DNA from: a virus
Lineage: Duplodnaviria > Heunggongvirae > Uroviricota > Caudoviricetes
Reading direction: 5' to 3' (one strand)
Length of the DNA: 4,077 nt
IMG/VR virus record: IMGVR_UViG_2671181040_000009
The position numbers and the translations under genes are program-made. Positions 1 to 4,077 of the stretch are shown here, one piece after another. Under the pieces are notes generated by a model. It did not search any database, was not told the origin of the DNA, and saw only the letters and a list, made by a program, of their open reading frames with translations. Every line of letters begins with the position of its first letter. The stretch's first letter is position 1.

Positions 1-99
1 CTTCCATCGGAAACGATGATCTGGCAGCCTGAGTTCACAGATAAAACACTCTCCAGGAAACCCGGGGCGGTTCAGAGAGGTGCTGGCTCAAAAGGATAG
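1..99 (+). CDS. 3' end of an upstream ORF open at the window start (frame 1, stop TAG 97-99); identity unknown, possibly C-terminus of a Q-like late antiterminator by position only
   Basis: Frame 1 is open from base 1 to TAG at 97-99 (LPSETMIWQPEFTDKTLSRKPGAVQRGAGSKG*); the other two + frames hit stops within 30 nt. It sits just upstream of a tR'-like terminator and the lysis cassette, where lambdoid phages carry Q. I do not recognise the residues themselves. Confidence 0.25.
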   Translation, partial: LPSETMIWQPEFTDKTLSRKPGAVQRGAGSKG

Positions 100-262
100 A
101 TGTACTTCACATGTTGCTTCTATATGGCAGTACATTTTCTGACAGACAGTGACGGATGTTGTCAAGATATTGTGTCATTTATAACCTGAATCAGGGGAGG
201 CCGGAATGTTATCTGGCATTTTTAGCAGAGCCTGAATGCCATAATCACGGCTCCCGGCGTTG

Positions 263-299
263 GCCGTCAGTGGGTGACACTGGCGGCTTTTTTGTTTTT
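263..299 (+). terminator. Rho-independent terminator in the tR' position, upstream of the holin gene
   Basis: Stem 263-272 GCCGTCAGTG pairs with 278-287 CACTGGCGGC (10 bp, one G-U pair at 267/283), loop GGTGA, followed directly by TTTTTTGTTTTT (288-299). Seen directly in the sequence. Confidence 0.7.
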
Positions 300-343
300 C
301 TTTACTTTCATTTTCTGTCGGCGGTGACGGAGACATACATCAG

Positions 344-550
344 ATGGAAAAAATCACAACAGGTGTGTCATACACCACGTCAGCGGTGGGGACGGGATAC
401 TGGTTACTGCAGCTGCTGGACAAAGTCTCTCCGTCCCAGTGGGTGGCAATAGGTGTGCTGGGAAGTCTGCTGTTTGGCCTGCTGACGTATCTGACAAATC
501 TTTATTTCAAGATTAAAGAAGATAAGCGTAAGGCTGCGAGAGGTGAATAA
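344..550 (+). CDS. S: Class II holin (pinholin), phage 21 S21-type, 68 aa
   Basis: [68 protein letters not shown] closely matches my recollection of the S21 / DLP12 EssD pinholin (...[24 protein letters not shown]...[21 protein letters not shown]). Two predicted TMDs: a weakly hydrophobic Gly/Ser/Thr-rich TMD1 and a TMD2, with a charged C-terminus. GGAG at 329-332 as SD. Stop TAA 548-550 overlaps the next start (TAATG). Confidence 0.9.
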
Positions 551-1047
551 TGTCGCCGTCATTACGCAAGGCTGTTGCAGCTGCTATTGGTGGTGGGGCT
601 GTTGCCATAGCGTCTGTGCTCATCACTGGTCCAGGTGGTAACGATGGTCTGGAAGGTGTCAGCTACATACCATACAAAGATATCGTTGGCGTATGGACTG
701 TATGTCACGGACACACCGGAAAAGACATCATGCCCGGTAAAACGTATACCGAAGCAGAATGCAAAGCCCTCCTGAATAAAGACCTTGCCACGGTCGCCAG
801 ACAAATTAACCCGTACATCAACGTCGATATACCGGAAACAACGCGCGGCGCTCTTTACTCGTTCGTTTACAACGTGGGCGCTGGCAATTTCAGAACATCG
901 ACGCTTCTTCGCAAAATAAACCAGGGCGATATCAAAGGCGCATGTGATCAGCTACGGCGCTGGACATACGCTGGCGGTAAGCAATGGAAAGGGCTGATGA
1001 CTCGCCGCGAGATTGAGCGTGAAGTCTGTTTGTGGGGGCAACAATGA
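550..1047 (+). CDS. R: SAR (signal-anchor-release) endolysin, T4-lysozyme-like muramidase (GH24), phage 21 R21-type, 165 aa
   Basis: N-terminal Gly/Ala-rich SAR domain ([23 protein letters not shown]) followed by a lysozyme core with E35, D44 and T50 in the positions of the catalytic triad ([17 protein letters not shown]). Near-identical to R21 / DLP12 RrrD as I recall them. Start ATG 550 overlaps the holin stop; GAGGTG as SD. Confidence 0.93.
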
Positions 1048-1481
1048 GCAGGGTAACCGTTATTATCTCCGCTCTGGTTATCTGCATTATCGCCTGCCTG
1101 TCATGGGCTGTTAATCATTACCGTGATAACGCCATCGCCTACAAAGAGCAGCGCGATAAAGCCACATCCATCATCGCTGATATGCAGAAGCGGCAACGTG
1201 ATGTAGCAGAACTTGACGCCAGATACACAAAGGAGCTTGCTGATGCTAATGCGACTATCGAAAGTCTCCGTGCTGATGTTTCTGCTGGGCGTAAGCGCCT
1301 GCAAGTCTCCGCCACCTGTGCAAAGTCAACGACCGGAGCCAGCAGCATGGGCGATGGAGAAAGCCCAGGACTTACAGCAGATGCTGAACTCAATTATTAC
1401 CGTCTCCGAGGTGGAATCGACAAGATAACCGCGCAGGTTAACTACCTGCAGGAATACATCAGGACGCAGTGCTTAAAATAA
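1044..1481 (+). CDS. Rz: Rz i-spanin (inner-membrane spanin subunit), lambda-like, 145 aa from ATG 1044
   Basis: [31 protein letters not shown]... matches the lambda Rz N-terminus ([31 protein letters not shown]). N-terminal TMD then a charged coiled-coil periplasmic domain. ATG 1044-1046 overlaps the endolysin stop TGA 1045-1047 (ATGA). The ORF track starts at GTG 1032, but ATG 1044 matches the lambda Rz start and is preceded by a GGGGG SD. Confidence 0.9.
1243..1428 (+). CDS. Rz1: Rz1 o-spanin (outer-membrane lipoprotein spanin subunit), embedded in the +1 frame of Rz, about 61 aa
   Basis: ORF in the +1 frame lies entirely inside Rz. From ATG 1243: [36 protein letters not shown]..., with a lipobox-like VSAC and a Pro-rich mature region, as in lambda Rz1. 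AGGAG SD at 1231-1235, 7 nt upstream. The track start at TTG 1213 is less likely. Confidence 0.75.
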
Positions 1482-1518
1482 TTTTAATTTCACTGAAATT
1501 TAACAAGTGACTTTCAGG

Positions 1519-1548
1519 AAAATGCCTCGCAGATGCGGGGCATTTTTG
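1519..1548 (+). terminator. Rho-independent terminator downstream of Rz/Rz1
   Basis: GC-rich stem 1524-1530 GCCTCGC pairing with 1535-1541 GCGGGGC (one G-U), tetraloop AGAT, extended by A:T pairs (1519-1523 with 1542-1546), followed by a T-run at 1543-1547. An A-tract upstream allows bidirectional function. Confidence 0.7.
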
Positions 1549-1699
1549 TACCGGTATTTCACCGCGCACCGCAGCGCACAATAAACACCGAACCTGACCC
1601 TTTGGAATGGGCCTTTGAGGATACCAGTTAGTGCTGGCGAGCCTCGGTGGGCTGGTTTCCTGTGCGGCAAAGGTTCATTTCAAAGAAGCAGGCAACGCC

Positions 1700-2248
1700 A
1701 TGAATGAATTAATTGCGAATCATGACTTCGACTTTCGCCAGTTAGTTACCGCAGCAGAAGGTCAACCGGTAACTGACACCTTCCAGATTGCCAGGGCATT
1801 TGGTAAACGCCATCAGCATGTGATTAGGGCTATTAAATGTTTGAGATGTTCTGAGGAATTCTCGACAACCCATTTTTGGGCCGTCGAGAAAATCAATGAC
1901 TTAGGTATTTTTGACAAGAAACAGATTTACTACCGCATGGACTTTAGTGGCTTCGTTATGCTGGTTATGGGATTTAACGGGGCAAAAGCCGATGCTGTTA
2001 AAGAAGCCTATATCAATGCGTTTAACTGGATGTCAGCAGAACTCCGTAAGTACAGCGAAAGTTATGAAGCAGAACGTAACGCCGTAATGCTGGAGTACAT
2101 GAAAGAGAAGGATGTCGCCAGCATGTCAGGCCGTCTGCTCAATCGCTGGGGGAGAACGAAAAAAACTCAATTGCTTGCAAAGCTGGAACGTCTGGAGAGA
2201 CAGGGACAGTTTTTATTACCGGGATTCGATAAAGGTATTCAAGCCTGA
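1700..2248 (+). CDS. Rha-family phage regulatory protein (Phage_pRha-like domain), about 182 aa from ATG 1700; alternative GTG start at 1631
   Basis: Motifs VTDTFQIARAFGKRHQHVIRAIK and GFVMLVMGFNGAKADAVKEAYINAFNWM resemble the conserved Rha-domain blocks (FGKRHdnVlRdI and LLvMgftGkkA...YIeaFN) as I recall them. The short C-terminal tail is helical and charged. Start is ambiguous: ATG 1700 (MNELIANHDF...) or GTG 1631 with a GAGGA SD 9 nt upstream. Confidence 0.6.
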   Translation: MNELIANHDFDFRQLVTAAEGQPVTDTFQIARAFGKRHQHVIRAIKCLRCSEEFSTTHFWAVEKINDLGIFDKKQIYYRMDFSGFVMLVMGFNGAKADAVKEAYINAFNWMSAELRKYSESYEAERNAVMLEYMKEKDVASMSGRLLNRWGRTKKTQLLAKLERLERQGQFLLPGFDKGIQA

Positions 2249-2273
2249 CACATTATGCGCTGTATCGTCGCCG

Positions 2274-2338
2274 TATTCCCGCATTAACCATGACCGTAGC
2301 CCGACGGGGAATTCCTTCTGCGTGAGTGTGCGGGAATA
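2274..2338. repeat. Perfect 10-bp inverted repeat (TATTCCCGCA / TGCGGGAATA) flanking a 45-bp spacer, just after the Rha-like stop
   Basis: 2274-2283 TATTCCCGCA is the exact reverse complement of 2329-2338 TGCGGGAATA. Seen directly. No T-run follows on the + strand. Confidence 0.5.
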
Positions 2339-2435
2339 ATCAAAAACGATGCACACCGGGTTTTACTGTGCTGACAGACGCAGGGTTACCCTCATAGTCG
2401 CTTTTCCGGTGCGATGGTGGAAGAAACCGGGATGT

Positions 2436-2630
2436 TCATCCATCATCACTTTGGATTGATGTATATGCTCTCTTTTCTGACGTTAGTCTCCGACGGCAGG
2501 CTTCAATGACCCAGGCTGAGAAATTCCCGGACCCTTTTTGCTCAAGAGCGATGTTAATTTGTTCAATCATTTGGTTAGGAAAGCGGATGTTGCGGGTTGT
2601 TGTTCTGCGGGTTCTGTTCTTCGTTGACAT
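2436..2630 (-). CDS. ylcI: Small ribbon-helix-helix-like DNA-binding protein, YlcI/YnfO (DUF3950)-like, 64 aa
   Basis: Reverse-strand ORF MSTKNRTRRTTTRNIRFPNQMIEQINIALEQKGSGNFSAWVIEACRRRLTSEKRAYTSIQSDDG: basic N-terminus, then a beta-strand/helix/helix pattern (NIRFP / NQMIEQINIALEQ / NFSAWVIEACRRRL) typical of Arc/CopG-type RHH proteins. Same length (64 aa) and same position beside the Nu1 homologue as ylcI in E. coli K-12 DLP12, as I recall. ATG confirmed as reverse complement of 2628-2630. SD is weak. Confidence 0.6.
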   Translation of the reverse strand: MSTKNRTRRTTTRNIRFPNQMIEQINIALEQKGSGNFSAWVIEACRRRLTSEKRAYTSIQSDDG

Positions 2631-2691
2631 GAGGTTGCCCCGTATTCAGTGTCGCTGATTTGTATTGTCTGAAGTTGTTTTTACGTTAAGT

Positions 2692-2724
2692 TGACGCAGA
2701 TCAATTAATACGATACCTGCGTCA
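2692..2724. promoter_or_regulatory. 8-bp inverted repeat TGACGCAG / CTGCGTCA with a 17-bp AT-rich spacer; candidate operator or promoter element in the divergent region between the ylcI-like gene and Nu1
   Basis: 2692-2699 TGACGCAG and 2717-2724 CTGCGTCA are exact reverse complements. The surrounding 2640-2800 is AT-rich with recurring TGAC(G/A) motifs at about 2625, 2692, 2737 and 2767. Function is inferred, not shown. Confidence 0.35.
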
Positions 2725-2798
2725 TAATTGATTATTTGACGTGGTTTGATGGCGTAGATGCACGTTGTGACATGTAGATGATAATTATTATCATTTTA

Positions 2799-2815
2799 CT
2801 GTCGTTTCCTTTCTC
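2799..2815 (+). promoter_or_regulatory. cosB R1-like Nu1 binding element (CTGTCGTTTCCTTTCTC), the only lambda cos element retained
   Basis: Matches lambda R1 (lambda coordinates about 151-167, CTGTCGTTTCCTTTCTC) as I recall the lambda left end. Lambda-identical sequence continues from here into Nu1, but the sequence upstream of about 2799 does not match lambda. Confidence 0.55.
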
Positions 2816-2838
2816 TGTTTTTGTCCGTGGAATGAACA

Positions 2839-3384
2839 ATGGAAGTCAACAAAAAGCAGCTGGCTGACATTTTCGGTGCGAGTATCCGTACCATTCAGAA
2901 CTGGCAGGAACAGGGAATGCCCGTTCTGCGAGGCGGTGGCAAGGGTAATGAGGTGCTTTATGACTCTGCCGCCGTCATAAAATGGTATGCCGAAAGGGAT
3001 GCTGAAATTGAGAACGAAAAGCTGCGCCGGGAAGTTGAAGAACTGCGGCAGGCCAGCGAGACAGATCTCCAGCCAGGGACTATTGAGTACGAACGCCATC
3101 GACTTACGCGTGCGCAGGCCGACGCACAGGAGCTGAAAAATGCCAGAGACTCCGCTGAAGTGGTGGAAACCGCATTCTGTACTTTCGTGCTGTCGCGGAT
3201 CGCAGGTGAAATTGCCAGTATTCTCGACGGGATCCCCCTGTCGGTGCAGCGGCGTTTTCCGGAACTGGAAAACCGACATGTTGATTTCCTGAAACGGGAT
3301 ATCATCAAAGCCATGAACAAAGCAGCCGCGCTGGATGAACTGATACCGGGGTTGCTGAGTGAATATATCGAACAGTCAGGTTAA
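2839..3384 (+). CDS. Nu1: Terminase small subunit gpNu1 (lambda Nu1-type), 181 aa
   Basis: MEVNKKQLADIFGASIRTIQNWQEQGMPVLRGGGKGNEVLYDSAAVIKWYAERDAEIENEKLRREVEELRQ... is essentially lambda gpNu1 (N-terminal winged-HTH DNA-binding domain) with a few substitutions. The 546-nt length and spacing to A match lambda coordinates 191-736. Confidence 0.95.
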   Translation: MEVNKKQLADIFGASIRTIQNWQEQGMPVLRGGGKGNEVLYDSAAVIKWYAERDAEIENEKLRREVEELRQASETDLQPGTIEYERHRLTRAQADAQELKNARDSAEVVETAFCTFVLSRIAGEIASILDGIPLSVQRRFPELENRHVDFLKRDIIKAMNKAAALDELIPGLLSEYIEQSG

Positions 3385-4077
3385 CAGGCTGCGGCATTTT
3401 GTCCGCGCCGGGCTTCGCTCACTGTTCAGGCCGGAGCCACAGACCGCCGTTGAATGGGCGGATGCCAATTACTATCTCCCGAAAGAATCCGCATACCAGG
3501 AAGGGCGCTGGGAAACACTGCCCTTTCAGCGGGCCATCATGAATGCGATGGGCAGCGACTACATCCGTGAGGTGAATGTGGTGAAGTCTGCCCGTGTCGG
3601 TTATTCCAAAATGCTGCTGGGTGTTTATGCCTACTTTATAGAGCATAAGCAGCGCAACACCCTTCTCTGGTTGCCGACGGATGGTGATGCCGAGAACTTT
3701 ATGAAAACCCACGTTGAGCCGACCATCCGCGATATTCCGTCGCTGCTGGCGCTGGCTCCGTGGTATGGCAAAAAGCACCGGGATAACACGCTCACTATGA
3801 AGCGTTTTTCCAATGGTCGTGGCTTCTGGTGCCTGGGCGGTAAAGCGGCAAAAAACTACCGTGAAAAGTCGGTGGATGTGGCGGGTTATGATGAACTTGC
3901 TGCCTTTGATGAGGATATTGAACAGGAAGGCTCTCCGACGTTCCTGGGTGACAAGCGTATTGAAGGCTCGGTCTGGCCAAAGTCCATCCGTGGCTCCACG
4001 CCCAAAGTGAGAGGCACCTGCCAGATTGAGCGTGCAGCCAGTGAATCCCCGCATTTTATGCGTTTTCATGTTGCCTG
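3359..4077 (+). CDS. A: Terminase large subunit gpA (lambda A-type), 5' portion only (first about 239 codons), truncated by the window end
   Basis: Translation from 3359 gives MNISNSQVNRLRHFVRAGLRSLFRPEPQTAVEWADANYYLPKESAYQEGRWETLPFQRAIMNAMGSDYIREVNVVKSARVGYSKMLLGVYAYFIEHKQRN..., matching the lambda gpA N-terminus as I recall it, with a few substitutions. The start codon here is GTG (3359-3361), directly after an in-frame TGA at 3356-3358, and it overlaps the Nu1 3' end by 26 nt as in lambda (A at 711, Nu1 ending 736). Absent from the ORF track because it has no stop in the window. Confidence 0.93.
   Translation, partial: MNISNSQVNRLRHFVRAGLRSLFRPEPQTAVEWADANYYLPKESAYQEGRWETLPFQRAIMNAMGSDYIREVNVVKSARVGYSKMLLGVYAYFIEHKQRNTLLWLPTDGDAENFMKTHVEPTIRDIPSLLALAPWYGKKHRDNTLTMKRFSNGRGFWCLGGKAAKNYREKSVDVAGYDELAAFDEDIEQEGSPTFLGDKRIEGSVWPKSIRGSTPKVRGTCQIERAASESPHFMRFHVA

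Follow-up and report, generated by a model that had tools for sequence, protein, structure and literature searches.

What occupies the DNA between the lysis genes and the terminase genes of a lambda-like prophage, and does it act as a unit? We examined this question in a 4,077-bp stretch of a Caudoviricetes virus (IMG/VR record IMGVR_UViG_2671181040_000009; hereafter the window), in which 1357 bp (1482–2838) separate the end of the Rz spanin gene at 1481 from the start of Nu1, the gene for the small terminase subunit, at 2839. This interval carries rha (1700–2248, plus strand), encoding a 182-aa Rha-family protein, and a ylcI/ynfO-family gene (2436–2630, minus strand; hereafter ylcI) encoding a 64-aa DUF3950 protein. 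An initial annotation, made from the letters alone, had read the interval as one accessory, moron-like segment in which Rha was paired with a small ribbon-helix-helix (RHH) protein. The features that it named all exist where it placed them, but we consider it likely that the interval is no single accessory module and instead a patchwork of lambdoid pieces, each known already and each exchangeable on its own, which later suffered a deletion. The first piece would be a P22-type rha cassette (∼1482–2255) comprising the terminator of the lysis cassette, a structured leader RNA and rha; the second, a 175-bp non-coding linker (2256–2430) offering a patch of homology for module swaps; and the third, the right end of lambda (2431–2797), with the ylcI-like gene and its AT-rich upstream tract. 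Loss of cos through a 181-bp deletion would then account for the remaining difference from intact relatives.

Pairwise comparisons resolved the window into homology blocks, each shared with different relatives (L numbers denote the loci compared). Block 1078–2169 matches Salmonella phage P22 at 91.5% identity and takes in the distal part of Rz, the terminator, the leader and most of rha. A longer block, 395–2430, is shared at 91.5% with phage IdasGreatGrand (L164) and an IMG/VR contig (L126) and covers the lysis genes, rha and the linker; both of these relatives carry rha without ylcI. From 2256 to 2809, through the linker, ylcI and the flank left of cos, the window follows a bor-type lambda-like prophage (L004) at 98.7%, and 2419–2809 aligns with the right end of lambda (48092–48483) at 95.7%, true homology reaching to 2797 and the bases beyond it matching lambda by chance similarity only. 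A shorter match, 2256–2363, joins part of the linker at 82.6% to lambda 46868–46974, the segment between bor and lambdap78.

The linker itself is common to rha-type, bor-type and ylcI-less phages and to a prophage with an HNH/Terminase_2 packaging module, and it is a probable recombination joint at which modules swap. It makes up most of the 187-bp convergent gap between rha and ylcI (2249–2435), and the gap contains, as had been reported, a perfect 10-nt inverted repeat (2274–2283/2329–2338) with arms 45 nt apart, for which our own arithmetic gives a chance expectation of ∼0.02–0.08. As a terminator or RNA element the repeat was rejected, its fold being no more stable than that of shuffles (z = −1.3 and −0.7), with no U-tract and no Rfam match; two small open reading frames (ORFs) in and around the gap, 2216–2356 (minus strand) and 2349–2459 (plus strand), matched no significant family. 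The two genes that face each other across the gap are convergent and not divergent regulators, as the initial annotation had called them.

Gene order across relatives separates rha from ylcI in the same way. We classified loci from IMG/VR, where sampling took the 80 closest relatives per query, which are not independent lineages, and where the figures are counts biased toward close relatives and not a formal test. Among 77 classifiable loci with ylcI, its neighbour on the Rz side was bor in 44, rha in 23, the 68-aa ORF of lambda in seven and none of these in three. Of 68 classifiable rha loci, 30 had ylcI downstream and 38 were without it. The 221-bp spacing between Rz and rha is fixed, and ylcI lies 386–389 bp from Nu1 in 56 of 68 loci. 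In 5,426 complete Escherichia coli genomes, ylcI is present in 3,569 (8,370 places), the rha allele of the window in 357, and a contiguous rha–ylcI arrangement in 270. Because about two-thirds of the genomes carry ylcI beside a lambda-type terminase, independent assortment predicts contiguity of this order, and 270 of 357 is what the 66% background of ylcI leads one to expect, though the figure does not by itself exclude an interaction.

These distributions bear directly on the proposal that Rha and the RHH protein belong to a single moron module of two genes, such as an antirepressor with its cognate repressor, inserted whole for lysogenic conversion or phage exclusion. The genes are indeed adjacent and convergent in the window and contiguous in the 270 E. 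coli genomes, and a prophage with a different terminase (L165) shows a comparable order, with a KilA-N/ORF11CD3 protein, the linker and an opposite-strand DUF3950 gene. Yet most loci pair ylcI with bor, lambda too has ylcI, the 38 rha loci without ylcI include P22, homology breakpoints fall between the two genes, the fixed spacing ties rha to Rz and ylcI to Nu1, and PADLOC returned no defence match for either Rha or YlcI. Independent assortment largely refutes the two-gene reading, which we consider very unlikely: the survey found the genes scattered independently of each other, the outcome that the initial annotation had itself named as speaking against a pair. The 'pair' is best seen as an accident of mosaic recombination and is not worth following as a module. 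Small RHH proteins are often antitoxins and the site is typical of cargo, so YlcI might also be thought of as the antitoxin of a toxin–antitoxin pair or as part of an anti-phage defence; neither the window nor the other contexts examined hold an adjacent toxin-sized ORF or a constant neighbour, however, the PADLOC search was negative for YlcI in this respect as well, and we find the idea scarcely credible.

As gene content, the interval is nothing new. The window represents the late region of an E. coli lambda-like prophage, as judged from gene calls and Pfam, and over its whole length it is 99.6–100% identical to prophages in complete E. coli genomes. The closest relative is a complete lambda-like prophage in E. 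coli AMSHJX01 (L174), with cI, cro, O, P, nin genes, Q, and lysis, head and tail genes, in which RefSeq already labels a 'Rha family transcriptional regulator' and a 'YlcI/YnfO family protein'. The same DNA is thus annotated base for base in complete genomes, rha has long been present in the P22 sequence and the ylcI ORF in that of lambda (for decades), and as cargo the interval is routine. What is new or little known lies elsewhere: a covarying RNA in the rha leader, a corrected rha start, an apparent cos deletion private to this prophage, and a fusion of DUF3950 to a terminase domain in satellites. The first three had been overlooked in the initial annotation.

The Rha assignment itself was borne out by hidden Markov model searches. 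The protein matches Pfam PF09669 Phage_pRha (E = 5.6e-21; 75.4 bits, cut-off 29.9), TIGR02681 (E = 1.8e-20; 73.1 bits, cut-off 45.95) and PHROG 518 (E = 3.3e-86), and its residues 121–174 of 182 match ORF11CD3 (PF10549; E = 6e-22; 78 bits, cut-off 25). The layout comprises an alpha/beta N-terminal domain (residues 17–89), a 40-residue helix and the ORF11CD3 tail, nearly invariant and the region where conservation in the family alignment is highest. Both domains are members of the Bro network, in which phage regulators and antirepressors swap domains (PMC10111431). PMC4936722, citing Mozola & Friedman 1985 and Henthorn & Friedman 1995, places rha/orf201 in the late operon and describes the gene, known from P22 and phi80, as harmful when the host is IHF-deficient. 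A scan for the IHF consensus near rha gave one match, inside the coding sequence and non-significant.

The rha gene is annotated from a GTG at 1631 both in RefSeq and in P22 (205 and 201 aa, respectively). The start is likely the ATG at 1700, because diverged homologues have in-frame stops two to four codons before the equivalent of this ATG, most homologues are 177–183 aa long, and the PHROG 518 profile begins at residue 23 of the GTG form, which is the Met of ATG 1700. The common annotation would thus begin 23 codons too early and mask a conserved, covarying leader RNA.

This leader is a long hairpin of ∼86 nt (1600–1685, plus strand), identified with RNAalifold and a covariance model. The 100 nt before ATG 1700 are more strongly conserved than the Rha protein, and window positions 1606–1694 are identical at 88 of 89 nt to 'P22F', an 89-nt small RNA from P22-infected Salmonella that was reported without known function (PMC13397905). 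Across 15 sequences, RNAalifold gave 33 pairs with 99.6% of cells paired. The covariance model finds much more diverged copies in the same place before rha in further loci, and across 20 distinct sequences 96% of cells pair and 23 of the 33 pairs show compensatory changes (83 cells), counts that are somewhat inflated by an alignment fitted to the model but whose margin is large. None of 500 shuffles reached the observed values, and slid controls, in which partners were shifted by one to three columns, gave 4–9 compensated pairs and 34–52% pairing. The model has no match in lambda or in one bor-type locus. No Rfam family covers the hairpin; the single Rfam match at E ≤ 1 was to asX2 (minus strand, E = 0.93), whose 20.6 bits fall short of the gathering threshold of 70.

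A second diverged copy of the leader (L154:2388–2500) lies in the late region of another prophage, directly before a gene for a 231-aa protein of the ANT/KilAC antirepressor family (2498–3193). Its position suggests that the RNA element goes with antirepressor-like genes generally, and the covarying hairpin before rha and the ANT gene may represent a class of cis-regulatory RNA, absent from Rfam, that serves antirepressor-like genes of late operons. This is a more modest reading than the packaging role for YlcI considered below, and a better supported one. Sitting directly before the Shine–Dalgarno sequence, the hairpin probably limits or times Rha synthesis, whether through RNA processing, consistent with accumulation of the P22F fragment in P22, or through translational control. 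Because Rha is detrimental in IHF-deficient hosts, terminator and hairpin together are best explained as keeping the protein low or timed, and they would thereby hold down a product harmful to phage growth in such hosts. The leader RNA offers a testable handle on how phages restrain such a gene.

The terminator lies just after Rz (1518–1549, plus strand) and combines a 13-bp stem (1518–1530/1535–1547), a GC-rich core and a U-tract, the features of an intrinsic terminator. Its fold (−21.4 kcal/mol, z = −4.0) was equalled in stability by none of 200 shuffles. A simple terminator scan omitted it, presumably because the T run was counted within the stem. On the minus strand the fold is weaker (−14.7 kcal/mol, z = −2.9), and given the 5′ A-tract the element could also act weakly in reverse. 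It falls inside the P22-like block. The terminator is thus real, as first described, but it is not the segment's own: it lies upstream of rha, where it closes the lysis cassette, and not downstream of that gene.

Polymerase modified by Q (or by gene 23) passes through such terminators in lambda and P22 biology. A consensus scan, which is a weak test, found no promoter-like site between the terminator and rha (1549–1700). Co-oriented with the late operon and with no promoter of its own, rha would be made late, by Q-modified read-through of the terminator; PMC4936722 states late synthesis for P22 orf201. A moron would bring its own promoter and a downstream terminator; rha has no promoter-like site and its terminator lies upstream, and ylcI has no consensus promoter and is followed by an inverted repeat without a U-tract. 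Presence/absence polymorphism among collinear phages, also expected of morons, is evident, the slot between Rz and the linker holding rha, bor, another ORF or nothing. The description of rha as a variable accessory gene, in the slot filled by bor in lambda and most relatives, was sound.

For the small minus-strand ORF, the DUF3950 assignment was confirmed by PF13132 (E = 2e-20; 72.8 bits, cut-off 25), NF041551 YlcI_YnfO_N (E = 1.6e-9; 37.6 bits, cut-off 30) and PHROG 949 (E = 2.3e-35). The initial annotation had set the RHH protein and the AT-rich region against a lambda carrying bor. Lambda has both beside cos: its complement strand at 48109–48303 (L002:3110–3304) encodes the same 64-aa ORF, identical at 61 of 64 residues. 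In the lambda record J02459 this ORF is unannotated, as is everything to the right of Rz in the stretch fetched. The ylcI cassette (2431–2797, 367 bp, next to cosQ) is optional, since L126 and the isolated phage IdasGreatGrand do without it, 56 bp separating their linker from an intact cosQ–cosN. A 92-aa 'hypothetical protein' annotated in IdasGreatGrand (L164:3368–3646), at a place corresponding to the gap ORFs, reads across cosQ and cosN and is probably a spurious coding sequence.

The family is tiny, with 141 representatives at E < 1e-3 among 1.84 billion proteins, many of them noisy copies. Its conserved motif reads K-x-I-R-F-P ... N-F-S-A-W-V-x-E-A-C, and an AlphaFold2 (AF2) monomer model of moderate confidence (predicted local distance difference test score, pLDDT, 67) places an extended stretch at residues 13–18 and helices at 19–32 and 39–61. 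In hhalign comparisons with Arc, Mnt, CopG, ParD and NikR, NIRFP falls in register with the FNLRWP of Arc (P = 0.003, probability 10%). A profile search of PDB sequences gave CopG as the best RHH match, at E = 1.4, and Pfam RHH models left the family unmatched, one member reaching E = 0.09. The RHH label is plausible, the predicted secondary structure and the weak in-register Arc profile being compatible with it, but its support is slight. With modest confidence, we regard YlcI as a predicted small autonomous DNA-binding (RHH-like) regulator, transcribed against the late operon; it would be transcribed mainly when late transcription is off. Our literature search turned up no described function for YlcI, YnfO or DUF3950, and we agree with the earlier statement that neither Rha nor the small RHH protein has an established function in this context.

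YlcI homologues occur as stand-alone genes beside cos in lambda-like phages and divergent from the primase operon in P4-like satellites; others lie after cdtABC or at chromosomal spots without a constant partner. In one such locus (L170:830–3689) a diverged DUF3950 gene directly follows cdtABC (cytolethal distending toxin) in the same orientation and is followed by insertion sequence elements. In a P4-like satellite of E. coli CP027459 (L165:3590–4363), with an integrase and a D5_N/DUF5906 primase, a stand-alone DUF3950 protein is followed by a 120-aa fusion. Close ylcI alleles offer too few variants for an informative codon-position test. The best 120 database matches to YlcI are mostly error-laden copies without real diversity, chiefly single-member proteins from ∼3.5-kb contigs with 84–97% identity and odd lengths, some of them assigned to Staphylococcus aureus or Veillonella; we suspect that control DNA from the right end of lambda has contaminated assemblies.

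Upstream of ylcI, the reported AT-rich region was also found. The flank left of cos (2631–2797) is homologous to lambda ∼48304–48471 and has a GC content of 0.35, and the AT-rich tract as a whole (2650–2874) has 0.35–0.37 against ∼0.47–0.55 around it. The flank presumably holds the promoter and operator of ylcI. An imperfect 13-nt inverted repeat at 2700–2712/2720–2732 (ATCAATTAATACG / CGTCATAATTGAT), 70–100 bp upstream of the ylcI start and identical in lambda, is a candidate operator for the small predicted DNA-binding protein. The sole promoter-like minus-strand site upstream of ylcI (2778–2805, ACGACA-16-TATCAT, 9/12) spans the deletion junction, and was therefore created by the deletion and is absent from the intact relative.

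That junction lies at 2797–2798. Compared with the AMSHJX01 prophage, the window is identical over 2,723 and 1,279 bases, lacks 181 bp and differs by one base at the junction, having A in place of T at 2798. The absent stretch extends 33 bp leftward and 148 bp rightward of the cosN nick and contains cosQ (GGGTCCT), the 12-nt cohesive end of cosN (GGGCGGCGACCT) and R3, I1 and R2 of cosB (subsite layout from PMC4669245 and PMC9026076). A lambda-type cos, expected in the AT-rich, Nu1-proximal part of the interval, places cosQ, cosN and cosB (R3-I1-R2-R1) upstream of Nu1; here an R1-like repeat alone is left (GTCGTTTCCTTTCTCT, 2801–2816; compared with lambda R3, CGTTTCCGTTCT, in relatives L001 and L174), and it forms, together with the Nu1 ribosome-binding region, the plus-strand segment 2801–2838. 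The distance from ylcI to Nu1 is 208 bp in the window versus 386–610 bp in all 68 IMG/VR loci having both genes. The junction had no match in the 5,426 complete E. coli genomes, IMG/VR, GTDB representative genomes or JGI metagenomes. Packaging needs cosN and cosB to start and cosQ and cosN to end (PMC4669245, PMC9026076). If the deletion is real, a prophage without cos could not be cut and packaged in cis, and this copy would be immobilised while keeping intact lysis and terminase genes.

Several points weigh against the patchwork reading or parts of it. The missing 181 bp may have been lost during assembly, or when the trimmed ends of a linear genome with cos termini were joined, and the phage itself would then be complete: the gap has cosN, the point at which virion DNA terminates, at its centre, one odd base at the joint is the sole other difference from an intact prophage across 4,003 bp, and the junction was seen nowhere else in the collections searched. 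On the other side, the first 74 bases differ from close relatives, pointing to a separate strain that might carry a deletion of its own, prophages are commonly immobilised by deletions, and the sequence itself bears no mark of an assembly joint. We regard the artefact as quite possible, with somewhat less than even weight. Besides the relatedness of the IMG/VR samples and the fitting of the leader alignment to its own model, noted above, the rha allele of the window and ylcI are usual neighbours in complete E. coli genomes. Folding the 89-nt leader as a single sequence reveals no exceptional stability (z = −0.75), structure searches with Rha gave no significant match, a Foldseek search with YlcI against the PDB found nothing at E < 4, and the minus strand of the intact relative has no consensus sigma-70 site for ylcI. 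The proposed timing, late for rha and in the prophage state for ylcI, is inferred from orientation.

The proximity of ylcI to cos raises another alternative, in which the DUF3950 protein is a packaging-site-associated DNA-binding factor that acts at or near cos or on terminase, for example by modulating cos use or satellite competition. Some 170 bp separate the gene from cosQ, its distance to Nu1 is constant, and in the L165 prophage it adjoins the HNH/Terminase_2 module. The 120-aa satellite protein, which is complete and encoded beside an integrase and a primase, fuses DUF3950 to the N-terminal DNA-binding domain of a small terminase (Pfam Terminase_2, E = 1.6e-11; PDB TerS DNA-binding domains 2cmp and 4zc3, E ∼6e-4), and YlcI/YnfO family proteins are listed in capsid-forming phage-inducible chromosomal islands (PICIs; PMC13612085). 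Viable phages with the same cos and Nu1 nevertheless lack ylcI (IdasGreatGrand, L126), diverged homologues have no packaging genes nearby (by cyd, by fimbrial genes and hsdM, after cdtABC), the constant spacing to Nu1 may reflect the near identity of the sampled phages, and the known redirection of packaging by PICIs uses Rpp, a winged helix-turn-helix protein unrelated to DUF3950 (PMC9026076). We consider a packaging role for the protein unlikely. The fuller form of this idea, in which DUF3950 beside cosQ is packaging-linked and satellites adopted the domain, joined to the DNA-binding domain of a small terminase, as a means of hindering or redirecting the packaging of their helper, strikes us as a long shot; if true, the last ORF at the right end of lambda still without annotation would gain a function at cos.

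On the left of the interval, a class II (S21-type) holin (344–550) and a lysozyme (550–1047), both identified with Pfam, precede Rz (1044–1481, plus strand; Pfam Phage_lysis, E = 1e-34), in which Rz1 is embedded (∼1213–1428; E = 4e-20). Nu1 (2839–3384, plus strand; Pfam Phage_Nu1, E = 3.9e-101) is followed by the large terminase subunit, starting at ∼3359 according to the RefSeq annotation of relatives L001 and L174. Window positions 1–74 are unaligned with most of the closest E. coli relatives, which indicates a further mosaic breakpoint upstream of the holin gene; among the matches listed, one genome covers 1–4077.

Among known systems, the closest counterpart of the left part is the rha cassette of P22. 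The rha gene of the window is 91% identical in nucleotides to P22 orf201/rha and has the location by which P22 orf201 and phi80 rha are recognised, in the late operon just after the lysis genes, in P22 directly after Rz/Rz1 (gene 15), with the same position and orientation. The Phage_pRha plus ORF11CD3 architecture is shared, and terminator and leader are included in the 91.5% block. Unlike in P22, homology ends ∼80 bp before the end of rha, so that the last ∼26 residues of Rha differ, and the gene is followed by the lambda right end and Nu1, whereas P22 continues with orf25, orf80 and a pac-type terminase. The counterpart in lambda is bor, with which rha shares a polymorphic slot between Rz and the linker, filled among relatives by bor, rha, the 68-aa ORF of lambda or nothing. 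The two also differ: bor, encoded on the other strand, shows expression during lysogeny (PMC7067206), and rha points the same way as the late operon, has no detectable promoter and has its terminator upstream instead of downstream.

The right part resembles the right end of lambda (48092–48502), with 95.7% identity over 2419–2797 and a 64-aa ORF in the same orientation, divergent from Nu1, and it shares the RefSeq family name YlcI/YnfO with ylcI (DLP12) and ynfO (Qin) of the E. coli K-12 cryptic prophages. Lambda differs in carrying bor, lambdap78 and lambdap79 between Rz and the 64-aa ORF, where the window has rha, and lambda and all relatives examined retain the cosQ, cosN and cosB that are deleted here. 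With the Arc, Mnt and CopG RHH repressors, YlcI has in common its small size and an N-I-R-F-P motif near the N-terminus followed by two predicted helices, and differs in having no significant sequence or fold match to them. The rha hairpin, finally, resembles P22F and other structured 5′ leaders and processed RNAs of late or delayed-early phage genes, of which the RNase III sites of lambda are an example, in being a long imperfect hairpin placed directly before a gene within a long operon.

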